From an uncultured Nitrososphaerota archaeon (GTDB taxonomy: Archaea > Thermoproteota > EX4484-205 > JAAOZO01), in contig CAYOYV010000015.1 of assembly GCA_964408285.1 (NCBI GenBank), positions 1-42,442 of the forward strand: a stretch of DNA of 42,442 nucleotides. Direction: 5' to 3'. A program made the translations under genes and the position numbers. The notes under the pieces were generated by a model. That model was not told the DNA's origin. It saw nothing but the letters and a program-made list of their open reading frames with translations, and did no database searches. Shown here piece by piece: positions 341 to 38,376 of this stretch (positions are counted from its first letter, which is position 1; the number at the start of each line of letters is the position of its first letter).

Positions 341-3300
341 ACTCGACATGATACGCCACTTGGTGAATGGCTTGGCTTGGGCGCCGAAGAAGGGCGTGGC
401 AAGCTGCGAAAAGCCCCGGGGATGAGCACGCGTCAATTGATCCGGGGATTCCCGAATAGGAGATCCTATCCTCCGCTGAGGAGGACGCACCCCAAAAGGG
501 TGAGGGAACTGACCGGAAGGAAACATCCGAGTAGGTCAAGGAAAAGAAATCAAACGAGATTCCCTTAGTAACGGCGAGTGAAAAGGGAGAAGCCCAAACC
601 GAACGGGATGAGGAAACTCATCTTCGGATGTGGTGTTTGGACTGGGCCGCCTCCCTGCTTGACGACCCGAAGAGGTTTGGAATAACCTGCCCCAGAGGGT
701 GATAGCCCCGTAGGGGAAGTCGGGCGAGAGTTGGGCTCAGCACCAGAGTACCCTGCCTCGGATATGGCCGGGGAATATGGGAGGTATCTCCTTCCAAGGC
801 TAAATACGTCCCAAGACCGATAGCGCACCAGTACGGTGACGGAAAGCTGAAAAGTATCCCGGAAGGGAGGTGAAAAGCGCCTGAAACCAAGTGGTTAAAG
901 ACGTGCGCGGTCCCAAAGGGCTAATCCCTCCAGAAGGCAACGATGGAGGGTACCAGGATCGCGCGATCCGTCTAGAAACACGGGCCGGGGAGTCCATGGC
1001 CATGGCAAGCTTAAGGAGAATTCTCTGAAAGCTGAGGGAAACCGATTGTCCGCAACCACCTTTGGTGGCGAGGGACAGGATGCGCTCGTCTCTAGTCATG
1101 GCTATGGGACTAGAAACCGGACGATCTAGCCCTGGGCAAGGCGAAGTCAGGCGAAAGCCTGATGGAGGTCTGAAGGGGTGCTAACGTGCAATTTGTTCCT
1201 CTGACCTGGGGCTAGGGGACAAAAACCAATCTAGTCCGGTGATAGCTAGTTCCCCCCGAAGTGGGCCGCAACCCAGCGCGTCCGGAGGTTGCAGGTGGGG
1301 TAGAGCACCGATTGATGAGCAAGGGCCCGAAAGGGCCCACTTGTCTTTCGAACTCCGAATACATCTGCGCTTTAGATGGACGTATACGGGTTCTTCGGGG
1401 TAAGCTCGAAGACCGAGAGGGGGACAACCCAGACCAAGGTTAAGGCCCCTAAGTATTGGCTAAGTGTCAAACAAAAAGGCGTCATCTTTCTCAGACAGCG
1501 GGGGGGTAGGCTTAGAAGCAGCCATCCCTCAAAAAGTGCGTAACAGCTTACCCGCCGAGAAAGGTGGCCCTGAAAATGGACGGGGCTCAAGTCAATCGCC
1601 GATACCTTGGGAGTGTGATTTCTATCACACTCGGTAGGGGGGCGTCCTGGTCGGGCCGAAGTCGGGTTGTGAAATCCGGTGGACCGACCTGGAGTGCAGA
1701 TCCCGGTGGTAGTAACAGCTAAGTCGGGTGGGAATCCCGACCGCCGAAAGGACTAGGGTTCCCCGGCGATGCGTCGTCAGCCGGGGGTAAGTCGATCCTA
1801 ATCTACAACCTTAACACGGTTGGGAGAAGCGGGAAAGCCGGTTAATATTCCGGCACTAAGTGGGTACGTGCGGCAACGCTAGGCCTCTTCATCGACGGTT
1901 CGAGGTAGGTCAAGCGAGGTTGTCGCCTCGTCTAACCATTCAAACCTGGGGAGTTGCCGTAAGGGCGAGATCCAGGTGAAGATGGGAATGGCATGCCGTT
2001 AGGTGTGTTTGTCCGAACCTTGGACACAAGGAAAAGGTGAGGGGGAAGGATCCCACTTAATCGTACCGAGAACTGACACAGGTGTTCCTGGGTGAGAAGC
2101 CCAAGGCGTGTCGGGTCACTCCGTGGCGAGGGAACTCGGCAAATTAGCCTCATACCTTCGGTATAAGAGGTGCCTGAGGCTGACTCCTCGTGGGCCAGCT
2201 TCAGGTCGCAGTGACAAGGGGGTCCCGACTGTTTACTAAAAACACAGGGAACCGCTAGTCCGAAAGGATGTGCACGGTTCCTGAATCCTGGCCAGTGGCG
2301 GTACCTGAAACCTGGGTACAACTGGGCCAAGGGCCGCTAAACGCCGGGAGTAACTCTGACTCTCTTAACGGGACGGTTCGCTGCTCACGAGAAACATTAG
2401 AAGTTGAATCGCAGTTATCTCAGGACTTTCGTGATTTCAACTTAGAGAACATCTGAACTCAATTCCAAATCAAAAGGAAAGGTTCTATTCGAGATGTGCC
2501 TGTTCTTTTAGATTCTTTGTGTAGAGTTTCGAAGCGGCGACGTTCCGGGAGAAAGGTAGCCAAATGCCTTGTCGGGTAAGTTCCGACGTGCATGAATGGA
2601 GCAACGAGGGCCCTACTGTCCCCGCCCGGAGCCCGGTGAACCCACGTAACGTGGACGAACAGTCCACGAACTCCCAACGGGAAAAGAAGTCCCTAGGAGC
2701 TTTACTGCAGCCTGTCGTTGAGTCGCGGTTATTGATGCATAGTGTAAGTGGGAGCCATTACCAGCTTCCTCTCTCGGGGGGAAGTGAGGCGACAATGAAA
2801 CACCACTCATCGACGACCTCGATCCTAACTCAGGGAAACCTGAGGACATCGATTGGTGGGCAGTTTGGCTGGGGCGGTCCCCCCTTGAAAAGGTATCGAG
2901 GGGGCCCAAAGGTCGGCTCAGGTGGGTCAGAAATCCACCGTAGAGGGCAAGGCCAAAAGCCGGCTTGATCGGGATCTAAACGTCGAAGATCCCGGGGGCG
3001 AAAGCCTGGCCTAGCGAACCTCCGTGTCCCTAGAGATAGGGGCCGGAGCTGACAGAAAAGTTACCCCAGGGATAACAGGCTCGTCGCGGGTGAAAGTTCC
3101 CATCGACCCCGCGGTTTGGTACCTCGATGTCGGCTCTTCCCATCCTGGCGGTGCATAAGCCGCCAAGGGTAGGGCTGCTCGCCCGTTAAAGGGGAACGTG
3201 AGCTGGGTTTAGACCGTCGCGAGACAGGTCGGACTTTATCTGTTGGGAGTGCTGGTCGCCTGAGGGGAAGATATCCATAGTACGAGAGGAACTGGGTGTC

Positions 3301-3557
3301 GCGGCCGCCAGTTCATCGGTTGTCCGGCAGGGCATTGCCGAGCAGCCGCGCCGTCGTGGATAAGAGCTGAAAGCATCTAAGCTCGAAGCCACTCCCGAAA
3401 ATAGGCGGCCATTCCGAGACCCCCAACGCTCCCAAAGAGCGTCGGTCTCGGACGAGGGCTGGGGTAAAAGACTCCGTTGATAGAGCGGGGGTGTAAGCGT
3501 TTAGGCTTCGGCCGAGACGCTCAGCCCGCCGTCACTAATCGCTCGAGGTGTTGAGTT
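341..3557 (+). rRNA. rrl: 23S rRNA (contains one intron; ends approximate)
   Basis: Conserved LSU motifs throughout (AGTAACGGCGAGTGAA, GACTGTTTACTAAAAACACAGG, GATAACAGGCT, AGTACGAGAGGAAC); terminal helix ACTCGACAT/GTGTTGAGT. The 16S-23S spacer has no tRNA. Confidence 0.98.
2368..2553 (+). other. 23S rRNA BHB intron, 186 nt, after E. coli position 1927, no intact ORF
   Basis: Interrupts the conserved CTCTTA|AGGTAGC. Strict BHB: ACT-CTCT-TAA-CGGGACG ... CGTTCCG-GGAG-AAA-GGT. Confidence 0.93.
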
Positions 3558-3654
3558 GTCTCTGCGTTCACCTAGAGAGCGTCAGAATCTACCATGTTGG
3601 CACTTGTTCGCCTTCTTGATTAAGGATATATTTCACTTCAATCCAACTAATCTA

Positions 3655-3959
3655 CCCGGGATGAGTTGGTGGGCGGATGTCGGGCTCATGGGAGCCTGAG
3701 GAAACTTCCTTCTCTGCGCGGGTCTCGAGGCGTCGAAAGACGCAGGGGGAGACCCCTAGCAACGGGACAGAAATTCCCCCCTCCCACCGCGTGTGTATGA
3801 TGGGAACCCCCGGACAAAGGTGGCAAAGGGGTTGAAAATCTCGCCTCATGAAGAGCAAGGCCAAGTAAGCCAGATGATCGACCCGCTTGATGGCTAGGTA
3901 GGCCGCCTAGTCGAATTCCGCCTAAAACAGAAAAGGAGTTACGGCCAAGACATCCCGGG
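3655..3959 (+). ncRNA. rnpB: RNase P RNA
   Basis: P1 CCCGGGATG/CATCCCGGG; CR-I GAGGAAACTTCC and CR-V AACAGAAAAGGAGTTA form P4; ACAGAAA and TTGAAA S-domain motifs; TATA-like element near 3626. Confidence 0.95.
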
Positions 3960-3978
3960 AATCTAGGTCAAAACACGA

Positions 3979-37505: not shown

Positions 37506-37721
37506 ATGTCTGAAGAATTTCCATTCTCGGCAATGCATAGATTGCTTAGAAGGGCAGGAGCTGAAAGAGTAGGAGAGGATGCGGCCACAGAGCTATCGAA
37601 AGTTCTGGACAGTATCGGCTTCAAGATATCAAAACAAGCAGTCGAATTAGCGGCCCATGCTGGAAGGAAGACGGTCAAGGCAGCGGATATCCAGATAGCC
37701 GCGAAGCCATATCTTGAATAG
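37506..37721 (+). CDS. Archaeal histone (HMf family)
   Basis: FPFSAMHRLLRRAGAERVGEDA..A.HAGRKTVKAADI. Confidence 0.96.
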   Translation: MSEEFPFSAMHRLLRRAGAERVGEDAATELSKVLDSIGFKISKQAVELAAHAGRKTVKAADIQIAAKPYLE

Positions 37722-37722
37722 A

Positions 37723-38163
37723 CTAGATATCAAGCAGTACGGTAATCGTAGTCCTGTTTCTGCTGATCTTCACGGTCAGATCGTGATAGGTTACTCCTTT
37801 TATATGAATCCCAGGCCTATGTCTCCTAGGGTCGAATTTCTCTCCTTTCAATATCCCAGTAAGAAGGTAGGTAGTGTGATCTCTTCGGATCTTGCCATTG
37901 AACCGCTTGAACAGAAAGCCCTCACTATCAAATAGGAAGATGAACTCCTCTAGCCACAGATAGATCAATTCCTGCAGATGTTTCGCCTTTATCTTGACAC
38001 TCCTGCTTTGAGATTGTCGGATGACCTCAGGATTTCTAACCAGCACCGCCGTCAGCCCCCTAGCGCAGCTAACGAGAGCTTGTTTGAGATCATTACCGTG
38101 TCCTCTCACATATATGTCTGATATGTGCTCGAGAAACTCAAAGCCCCGCAAGTTGTTTCGCAT
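37723..38163 (-). CDS. Archease (RtcB cofactor)
   Basis: FEFLEHISD, LIYLWLEEFIFL, GEKFD, IKGVTYH, terminal LDI. Confidence 0.95.
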   Translation of the reverse strand: MRNNLRGFEFLEHISDIYVRGHGNDLKQALVSCARGLTAVLVRNPEVIRQSQSRSVKIKAKHLQELIYLWLEEFIFLFDSEGFLFKRFNGKIRRDHTTYLLTGILKGEKFDPRRHRPGIHIKGVTYHDLTVKISRNRTTITVLLDI

Positions 38164-38279
38164 ATGATCGGTAAGGCATCGTTTATTGCTTTTGTCCGAA
38201 GTGGCCAAGAGGTAGAGTTAGGGAACAAAGGGGCGTTTCATGGCTCTCCTAATTGCATGGACCTTCTATTGGGATTAGG

Positions 38280-38376
38280 CGCCCGGAAGGAGATTCGAAC
38301 TCCTACGGCCCGCAAGGGGCCACAGGCTTTCTCAAGGCTCAAGGCCTGCGCAATAACCAGGTTCTGCCATCCGGGC
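38280..38376 (-). tRNA. tRNA-Ser(UGA) with a 9-nt insertion/intron at 37/38 (38329-38337)
   Basis: GCCCGGA/TCCGGGC-G acceptor; long variable arm GGCCC/GGGCC; CAGGC-CTTGAG|CCTTGAGAA|A-GCCTG. Confidence 0.88.

Follow-up and report, generated by a model that had tools for sequence, protein, structure and literature searches.

Small bulge-helix-bulge introns predicted in tRNA, 23S and 5S rRNA and essential protein genes of a Brockarchaeota-like archaeon

Introduction

How can a primase gene that occurs once in its genome carry an in-frame stop codon, and the 5S ribosomal RNA (rRNA) gene near it an extra block of 17 nucleotides (nt), on a contig in which every detected transfer RNA (tRNA) gene is interrupted as well? 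The question is raised by contig CAYOYV010000015.1 of assembly GCA_964408285.1, whose whole length of 42,442 nt was analysed and is referred to here as the window; it is one of the 46 contigs (C15) of a 1.82-Mb archaeal genome, G000, that is 93.7% complete. An original prediction, made from the letters of the window, proposed that ten introns of the bulge-helix-bulge (BHB) type interrupt the 23S rRNA, 5S rRNA, dnaG and four tRNA genes, and that they belong to a micro-intron family spreading between RNA classes. The analysis reported here makes it very probable that small BHB introns, cut by the splicing endonuclease EndA and joined by the ligase RtcB, occur in tRNA, in 23S and 5S rRNA and in essential pre-mRNAs (those of dnaG, aIF5B, with two introns, aIF5A and cbf5), while the notion of a single mobile family was not supported.

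For comparison, 30 genomes were searched with DnaG exon 2, and the DNA preceding the FGQTEG motif was then inspected. These relatives are grouped into families (f1, f2 and f3) and genera (g2, the sister genus, g3 and g6). With the DnaG alignment as query, the nearest named DNA loci were metagenome-assembled genomes (MAGs) labelled Candidatus Brockarchaeota, Thaumarchaeota or Nitrososphaerota, and it is from these labels that the source archaeon is called Brockarchaeota-like.

Common structure of the inserts

All ten inserts were found at their predicted positions (one each in the 23S rRNA, 5S rRNA, dnaG, tRNA-Val, tRNA-Ala and tRNA-Ser genes, and four in the tRNA-Pro gene); every one fits the BHB pattern, mostly in its relaxed form, and their removal in silico restores the products. 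In this pattern, four exon bases and two bulge bases precede the first cut; the intron then opens with a single base, followed by a hairpin, by four bases that pair with the exon and by two more, after which comes the second cut. With a slash marking each cut, the dnaG intron is parsed as exon GUGG + AC / A + GGGCC-UAAC-GGCCC + CCGC + AA /, where CCGC pairs with exon GUGG, and the 5S intron as exon CCGU + AC / A + GGC-UAAC-GCC + GCGG + AG /, where GCGG pairs with exon CCGU. The design that had been described for these two introns (an A, a stem, a UAAC loop, a 4-nt exon complement and two purines) was thus confirmed, as was the 5' junction AC/AGG of the dnaG, 5S and tRNA-Val introns. The UAAC tetraloop is one that we take to be of the UMAC class. 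By eye, the same pattern also fits the introns of 23S rRNA, of the D loop and T loop of tRNA-Pro, of tRNA-Val and tRNA-Ala, and the mRNA introns that were found later. Shared design is therefore to be understood as the geometry demanded by the splicing endonuclease and not as the signature of one family. Apart from the 186-nt intron of 23S rRNA, all introns are 9-22 nt long.

The central 4-base-pair (bp) helix between exon and intron, with its 3-nt bulges, was obtained by RNAalifold for dnaG and 5S and was recognized by eye in the 23S, tRNA, aIF5B, aIF5A and cbf5 introns; compensatory changes were found in the dnaG and 5S introns. After removal of the introns, ARAGORN without its intron mode calls Pro(cgg) with 75 nt, Val(gac) with 74 nt, Ala(ggc) with 74 nt and Ser(tga), and relatives that are free of the introns match the junctions for 5S, aIF5B, aIF5A, tRNA-Pro and, in outgroups, dnaG. 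The inserts exceed chance, because RNAalifold recovers the helix-bulge-helix arrangement unaided for dnaG and 5S and because intron-less relatives show the predicted junctions.

Conservation and covariation in dnaG and 5S rRNA

Unspliced, the dnaG frame reads FEAEGVVDRA, a stop codon and then RPPQKHDVIGAVFGQTEGL; removal of the insert restores an intact DnaG frame, and one or two residues separate GVV(E/D) from DVIGA in the homologues. The start codon is probably the ATG at 5621, with an alternative ATG at 5642. The insert occupies the same site in each of the 22 relatives of the order in which the region is available (five of f1, 15 of g6, one of f3 and one of f2), and it is not present in the four genomes examined that represent other lineages of the phylum. 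The g6 genomes have their upstream exon in a different frame, the length of the insert not being a multiple of three, so that the gene is unreadable unless the insert is removed. Twelve of 80 named loci also carry it; three of the 12 are labelled Bathyarchaeota and have longer versions. Two loci with that label, L050 (CP070773.1) and L054, hold an insert of about 50 nt at the same site. Either the insertion site predates the order or it was hit repeatedly.

The stems of the dnaG intron are wholly different among lineages, with their complementarity kept. From 16 sequences RNAalifold predicted that exon and intron pair over 4 bp, followed by a 3-nt bulge and a stem of 6 bp; five of the ten pairs have changed on both sides. 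As a control, 96.8% of cells were paired at the proposed partners, as against at most 58.3% when the partners were slid, and the covariation score was reached by none of 500 shuffles.

For 5S rRNA, removal of the insert yields a normal junction, the intron-less gene of the sister genus g2 reading CCCGTAC/CCATTCCGAAC. Among the 23 order-level relatives with a 5S match, 14 have the insert at the same site (two in g3 and 12 in g6), seven are without it (three in g2, three in g6 and G006) and give exactly the predicted junction, and the remaining two, both of f3 (L123/G007 and L125/G009), bear an insert of 19-21 nt that begins a few bases further along, behind CCGAA, so that 5S genes of the order are interrupted at two different sites. 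Helix, bulge and stem are again returned by RNAalifold, two of the three stem pairs being changed on both sides. The loop is GAAA in most relatives and UAAC in G000 only.

Contigs from four other DNA sequencing runs were compared with the window over positions 4400-15000. All four cross the dnaG intron and three (X2, X5 and X6) cross the 5S intron, with no indels and no joints, and an assembly error is therefore unlikely. One X2 contig differs within the 5S intron (window positions 12446 and 12455), which on the RNA strand has a UAAG loop in place of UAAC and ends in AA in place of AG, the latter as in the relatives; it probably comes from a related strain.

Further introns in essential mRNAs

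The original prediction also held that more of the apparently broken core genes of this genome would prove to be spliced, an expectation borne out, as far as homology can tell, by two predicted introns in aIF5B and one each in aIF5A and cbf5. They emerged from a census that makes no use of structure, in which open reading frames (ORFs) of the distant outgroup G026 (1.60 of its 1.62 Mb) and of a second outgroup, G027 (about 232 kb), were compared with G000 by tblastn. Since such a census detects only introns lying between conserved protein segments, the mRNA introns of the genome number at least five. Three exons make up aIF5B, namely LREPIVVVLGH, then, after the 22-nt intron, VDHGKTSLLDKIRGTLVAKREAGGI and, after the 19-nt intron, TQHVGAS. 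Where relatives lack the aIF5B, aIF5A or cbf5 intron, their sequence is identical to the predicted junction. All mRNA-intron hosts are present once in the genome, and the introns cut catalytic motifs, that is, the P-loop, the hypusine lysine and the aspartate of Cbf5; the interrupted lysine codon of aIF5A is presumably the hypusine site. That catalytic motifs seem to be preferred may result from biased detection.

The genome-wide BHB scan that had been proposed as a check combined strict BHB structure (at most one G-U pair, a stem of at least 3 bp and purines at three places) with ORF fusion. It recovered dnaG and added one new case, aIF5B intron 2, and it missed aIF5B intron 1, aIF5A and cbf5. 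Its 4709 raw candidates fell to 755 once sites under long ORFs had been dropped, with dnaG and aIF5B intron 2 as the real ones; most long "introns" in its output were, by eye, intergenic spacers between adjacent genes.

Several other interruptions were considered and rejected. A split gene at C13:11517-11616 is a scaffolding artefact, in which 100 N are flanked on each side by one and the same stretch of about 50 bases. The MFS gene at C6:52571-52583 (minus strand) changes frame within a few bases between GKR and PLVLLGY, offers no usable intron and represents a frameshift or an assembly error. At C5:74821-75360 (plus strand), a PilT-like ATPase is a gene remnant that has an in-frame TAG and lacks about 270 N-terminal residues, and at C27:5781-6617 (minus strand) a cation-diffusion-facilitator gene has an in-frame stop, with no insertion, where its homologues have a sense codon; the gene may be a pseudogene, or the stop may be recoded or simply an error. 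For eIF2-gamma (C6:64940-64990, minus strand), which has an upstream in-frame stop and, before that stop, weak similarity to the N-terminus of the outgroup protein, translation from a GTG beyond the stop is the more economical reading, with a short 5' exon as a possible but less simple one. Finally, the pairs obtained with the second outgroup were an in-frame insertion in ribonucleotide reductase and two adjacent ABC ATPase genes, neither of them an intron.

Introns of tRNA and 23S rRNA

It had been claimed that all tRNA genes of the window are interrupted, and this holds for the four that were found; further, badly disrupted tRNA genes could have escaped detection. Three were given by ARAGORN and Rfam, and the fourth, tRNA-Pro, was recognized by reading the spacer at 14770-14960. 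Its syntenic orthologues in g3 (G002 and G004) have two introns, compared with four in G000; both are without intron A, the sequence across that site being GGCTAGCTTGG, and their mature anticodon loop is CUCGGGC. The T-loop intron (D), whose outer helix is the T stem, uses the same site in G002 and G004. When the two introns of the anticodon arm were parsed by structure alone, an 8-nt loop resulted; this parse was rejected, and boundaries guided by homology were used instead.

The tRNA-Ser intron and the exon bases before it (38329-38345, minus strand) form a tandem repeat of CCUUGAG, which hints at local duplication as an origin of some micro-introns. Across the genome, only 17 tRNA matches lie above the Rfam cut-off and 27 have E <= 1, at 93.7% completeness; introns at non-canonical sites probably interrupt, and thereby hide, the majority of the tRNA genes.

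In the 23S rRNA gene, the Rfam alignment places 187 nt against one model position. The BHB parse is exon CUCU-UA / A-CGGGACG ... CGUUCCG-GGAG-AA / A, with a stem of 7 bp, and the intron sits within the conserved segment CUCUUA/AGGUAGCC (CUCUUA-A-GGUAGCC).

Splicing machinery and weight of the evidence

As the original prediction had noted, ligase genes lie near the introns: rtcB and the gene for archease, its cofactor, are both in the window and match their Pfam models over the full length. A gap of 1.4 kb, in which a divergent helix-turn-helix gene lies, separates them, so an operon is not indicated. For EndA, whose subunit type had been named as a point to settle, the genome has two PF01974 paralogues, with matches at C4:48740-48997 and C8:13446-13700; the subunit genes themselves span C4:48452-49021 and C8:13425-14075. 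By eye, the C4 copy keeps the Tyr/His/Lys residues and the C8 copy is without the His. The best structure matches of the former (2cv8_A, 3p1z_B, 3ajv_B and 2zyz_B, all annotated "tRNA-splicing endonuclease") are, we assume, catalytic EndA subunits of Crenarchaeota; those of the latter are 1a79_A and 5x89_A. Two different genes, one catalytic-like and one structural-like, fit a two-subunit, (alpha-beta)2 enzyme, which is, according to the part of PMC5829648 that was available, one of two types able to cut non-canonical introns.

The proposed mechanism would be the known archaeal endonuclease-ligase splicing: a two-subunit EndA encoded on contigs C4 and C8 would cut in both bulges, and RtcB with archease would join the exons. 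That cutting and joining take place in the cell is what we infer from the positions of the inserts, their covarying structure, the restored products and the enzyme genes.

Several points weigh against this reading. The outer exon-exon helix is confined to the tRNA introns of the anticodon and T loop; most introns outside tRNA lack it and would be relaxed substrates (HBh' or bulge-helix-loop). The central helix of the g3 dnaG intron (L002 and L003) fits by eye at just three of four positions, and that of tRNA-Pro intron C contains one mismatch, its boundary having required homology to the orthologues. The 5S insert may stay in the mature RNA, and the EndA type was assigned from sequence alone. 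The sequencing runs listed with this DNA include no RNA run, and joined junctions and excised introns were hence not observed. Even so, splicing of small BHB introns by EndA and RtcB is considered very probable.

Ages, gains and losses

The introns are unrelated in sequence and differ in age: that of cbf5 reaches into other lineages of the phylum, that of dnaG is order-wide, the 5S intron and aIF5B intron 2 are patchy within the order, aIF5B intron 1 is family-wide and the aIF5A intron is confined to this genome (Table 1). The patchy distribution of the 5S intron and of aIF5B intron 2 requires that they were either lost or gained more than once. At the aIF5A site the relatives are uninterrupted, with AA(A/G)CC(N)GG(N)AA(A/G)CA(C/T)GG, and the presence of the intron in G000 alone, against none of 28 relatives' loci, therefore marks a recent gain in a coding gene. 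Taken together, these distributions suggest a lineage that gains and loses micro-introns over time and not the host of one spreading element.

Alternative explanations

The alternative that survives best accepts the introns and goes further, in that the tRNA-splicing machinery (EndA, RtcB and archease) may splice essential mRNAs and 5S rRNA quite generally, with micro-introns still being inserted into them. New insertions might arise when excised introns are spliced in reverse into conserved sites able to imitate one half of a BHB. Were this so, movement between RNA classes would be real, and the donors would be masked by decay of the hairpin sequences. We regard this extension as tentative and, on balance, unlikely.

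Less probable still, and doubtful on several counts, is the proposal from which the study started, namely that the dnaG, 5S and other introns form one ORF-less mobile family whose members jump between RNA classes, perhaps through reverse splicing, and that their likeness is due to common descent. In its favour, the dnaG and 5S introns of G000 share AC/AGG, a G-rich stem and a UAAC loop, the 5S intron and aIF5B intron 2 are patchy among relatives, and the aIF5A intron, gained in G000 alone, suggests that insertion is ongoing. However, the dnaG and 5S introns are both older than the divergence of the order's families and fixed in position, and their hairpins have since drifted independently; orthologous introns differ in loop and stem, with UAAC in no relative's dnaG loop and mostly GAAA in the 5S loops. 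The motif ACAGG(N0-3)CTAACG, suggested as a means of finding further members, occurs at two sites in the 1.82-Mb genome, which are the dnaG and 5S introns from which it was derived, while about 3.5 would be expected by chance according to our own arithmetic. No near copies of six micro-introns (dnaG, 5S, both of aIF5B, aIF5A and cbf5) exceeded chance at up to 3-4 mismatches genome-wide, the lone dnaG-like match, on C21, being at chance level (about 0.4 expected). A check for reverse transcriptases gave no RVT_1 match in the 93.7% complete genome, in a search that did not extend to other reverse transcriptase families or to homing endonucleases elsewhere; none of the introns encodes a mobility ORF, and all are too short for one. 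The genome contains 5354 BHB-like tetraloop contexts, eight of them with a UAAC loop, the dnaG and 5S introns included, and one further UAAC candidate, at C1:103673, was discarded as lying within an ordinary aminotransferase-like ORF. Fixed sites, different loops in orthologues and the lack of near copies and of an RVT_1 match thus tell against a family moving between RNA classes, and the likeness of the dnaG and 5S introns in G000 most plausibly reflects convergence toward a stable tetraloop.

Weakest of all, and highly improbable, is the view that the inserts remain unspliced, as pseudogenes, assembly errors or sites of frameshifting or bypassing, with the 5S insert an expansion kept in the mature RNA: the lack of an RNA run among those listed leaves room for it, and the genome does have true defects (the truncated ATPase with its in-frame stop, the cation-transporter stop and the MFS frameshift), but 22 relatives have the dnaG insert at an unchanged site, its stem showing compensatory changes, the inserts recur in independent assemblies (dnaG in four runs and 5S in three), the hosts are single-copy, essential and interrupted inside catalytic motifs, the 4-nt complement to the exon is found in every insert, spaced as EndA requires, and a retained 5S insert would compete with the helix between exon CCGU and the downstream ACGG. 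Splicing by EndA and RtcB is accordingly kept as the preferred explanation in what follows.

Features of the window and of the genome

Besides the interrupted genes, the window contains the 3' end of the 16S rRNA gene, the RNase P RNA gene and the genes of two PheRS subunits, together with the 23S rRNA, dnaG, 5S rRNA, rtcB and archease genes. The archaeal RNase P RNA (RF00373, 175 bits) lies at 3661-3953 on the plus strand, about 100 nt downstream of the 23S gene. Between rtcB and the archease gene, a 71-codon ORF at 37506-37720 (plus strand) reads as a putative archaeal histone.

Table 1. Interrupted genes, predicted introns and ligase genes; positions without a contig name refer to the window, and a slash in a sequence marks a cut or intron site
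Feature	Position	Strand	Basis	Occurrence among relatives
23S rRNA gene	339..3558	+	Rfam RF02540, 2696 bits, model positions 1-2987	
23S rRNA intron, 186 nt, no ORF	2368..2553	+	Rfam alignment and BHB parse	
dnaG exon 2 (Toprim primase), beginning KHDVIGAVFGQTEGL	4440..5525	-	Pfam Toprim_4 and Toprim_2, translation, tblastn with outgroup ORF	
dnaG pre-mRNA intron, 21 nt, in-frame TAA	5526..5546	-	Translation, relatives, covariation	22/22 order-level relatives with the region
dnaG exon 1, ending FEAEGVVD	5547..5621	-	Translation, N-termini of relatives	
5S rRNA gene, 139 nt (model: 120 positions)	12358..12496	-	Rfam RF00001, 55.4 bits	
5S rRNA intron, 17 nt	12446..12462	-	Rfam alignment, relatives, RNAalifold	
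tRNA-Pro(CGG) gene, 144 nt, four introns	14809..14952	+	ARAGORN after removal, orthologues	
tRNA-Pro intron A, 20 nt, D loop	14824..14843	+	Orthologues, ARAGORN	
tRNA-Pro intron B, 17 nt, within anticodon (35/36)	14867..14883	+	BHB parse, orthologue loop, ARAGORN	
tRNA-Pro intron C, 16 nt, canonical 37/38	14886..14901	+	Orthologue homology, ARAGORN	
tRNA-Pro intron D, 16 nt, T loop (59/60), full hBHBh'	14923..14938	+	Spacer reading, ARAGORN, orthologues	
tRNA-Val(GAC) gene	26284..26377	-	Rfam RF00005, 41.3 bits	
tRNA-Val intron, 20 nt, between positions 25 and 26	26332..26351	-	Exon UAGG + AC / A ... UCUA + AG /	
tRNA-Ala(GGC) gene	29411..29500	-	Rfam, ARAGORN	
tRNA-Ala intron, 16 nt, canonical 37/38	29448..29463	-	ARAGORN intron mode	
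rtcB, RNA 3'-phosphate ligase	34833..36284	-	Pfam PF01139, E 3.7e-168, 1-426 of 426	
Archease, RtcB cofactor	37723..38208	-	Pfam PF01951, E 8.3e-34, 1-136 of 136	
tRNA-Ser(UGA) gene	38278..38376	-	ARAGORN	
tRNA-Ser intron, 9 nt, bulge-helix-loop type	38329..38337	-	ARAGORN	
aIF5B intron 1, 22 nt, GH/VDHGKT	Contig C6	-	tblastn; exon GGUC-AU / A ... GACU-AU /	5/5 family members; 0/19 other order-level loci
aIF5B intron 2, 19 nt, EAGGI/TQH	Contig C6, 68649-68631	-	tblastn; exon GGGA-UA / G-CGGU-AGAA-ACCG-UCCC-AA /	g2 3/3, g3 0/2, f2 1/1, f3 2/2, g6 1/16
aIF5A intron, 19 nt, SKPGK/HGSAKA	Contig C14, 36146-36128	-	tblastn; exon GGGU-AA / A-GCGC-UCAG-GCGC-GCCU-AG /	0/28 relatives' loci
cbf5 intron, 15 nt, GHSGTL(D)/P, within catalytic-aspartate codon	Contig C6, 39017-39031 or, by the BHB parse, 39016-39030 (same spliced sequence)	+	tblastn; exon CCCU-UG / A ... 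GGGG-AA /	28/29 relatives' loci, including other phylum lineages; missing only from G026

Implications and comparison with known systems

Micro-introns in 5S rRNA and in essential protein genes are unusual for a prokaryote, and a single genome would here combine a 5S intron with five mRNA introns, which interrupt four essential genes coding for the replication primase, for two translation factors and for a pseudouridine synthase. What is new lies in the hosts (5S rRNA, dnaG, aIF5B and aIF5A), in how many mRNA introns a single genome contains and in the signs that one of them was gained recently. No report of a BHB intron in an archaeal 5S rRNA was found in a literature search that left subscription journals and supplements outside, where earlier predictions may exist, and within the same scope no relevant report appeared on BHB introns in initiation-factor or primase mRNAs, on BHB introns that shift the frame of archaeal protein-coding genes or on introns of Brockarchaeota. 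The varied ages of the introns make the order a natural series on the gain and loss of protein-spliced introns in coding genes. In practice, gene callers that do not model BHB introns will present the dnaG, aIF5A, aIF5B and 5S rRNA genes of such MAGs as broken, truncated or aberrant.

Among known systems, the unconventional splicing of HAC1 and XBP1 in eukaryotes offers a functional parallel: an endonuclease, IRE1, cuts mRNA sites borne on hairpins, an RtcB-type ligase rejoins the exons, and a short, frame-changing intron is lost. This IRE1/RtcB route is touched on in the part of PMC13149111 that was available. It differs in its endonuclease, which is IRE1 and not EndA, and in being a regulatory system with a single target, whereas G000 gave no evidence of regulation. 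Closer in lineage are the introns in 16S and 23S rRNA that occur in Thermoproteales and Desulfurococcales (PMC4496867, in its accessible portion). The 186-nt intron of the 23S rRNA gene resembles them in being bounded by a BHB and placed in a universally conserved segment, and departs from them in having no ORF for a homing endonuclease.

For tRNA, multiple non-canonical introns are known from Thermoproteales and soil Asgard archaea (PMC11291895, available in part and citing Sugahara 2008 and Marck & Grosjean 2003). The present genome is like them in having several introns per tRNA, sites in the D loop and at 25/26, 35/36 and 59/60, relaxed BHB structures and, by prediction, a two-subunit EndA. 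Unlike them, it uses the same grammar beyond tRNA, in 5S rRNA and mRNAs, and its lineage is Brockarchaeota-like and not that of the Thermoproteales.

The nearest precedent for the mRNA introns is the BHB intron in the cbf5 pre-mRNA of Crenarchaeota, reportedly described by Watanabe in 2002. Splicing of archaeal pre-mRNA has been confirmed for cbf5 only, other genes being merely predicted, according to the consulted portion of Yokobori 2009 (PMC2738675). The available text of PMC7714728 still refers to "one mRNA", the mRNA-intron citations seen in the reference list of PMC12397907 are cbf5 papers only, and for Haloferax, in the partial text at hand, one mRNA is reported as an endonuclease substrate and not as a spliced gene. 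Likeness to the crenarchaeal system lies in a short BHB intron within a protein gene, which a hetero-oligomeric EndA is thought to remove (PMC2738675, same portion). By its host gene, the cbf5 intron of G000, at GTLD/P, is of this known kind. The difference is one of extent: compared with the crenarchaeal system, in which cbf5 is the interrupted gene, the genome studied here has at least three more (dnaG, aIF5B, interrupted twice, and aIF5A).

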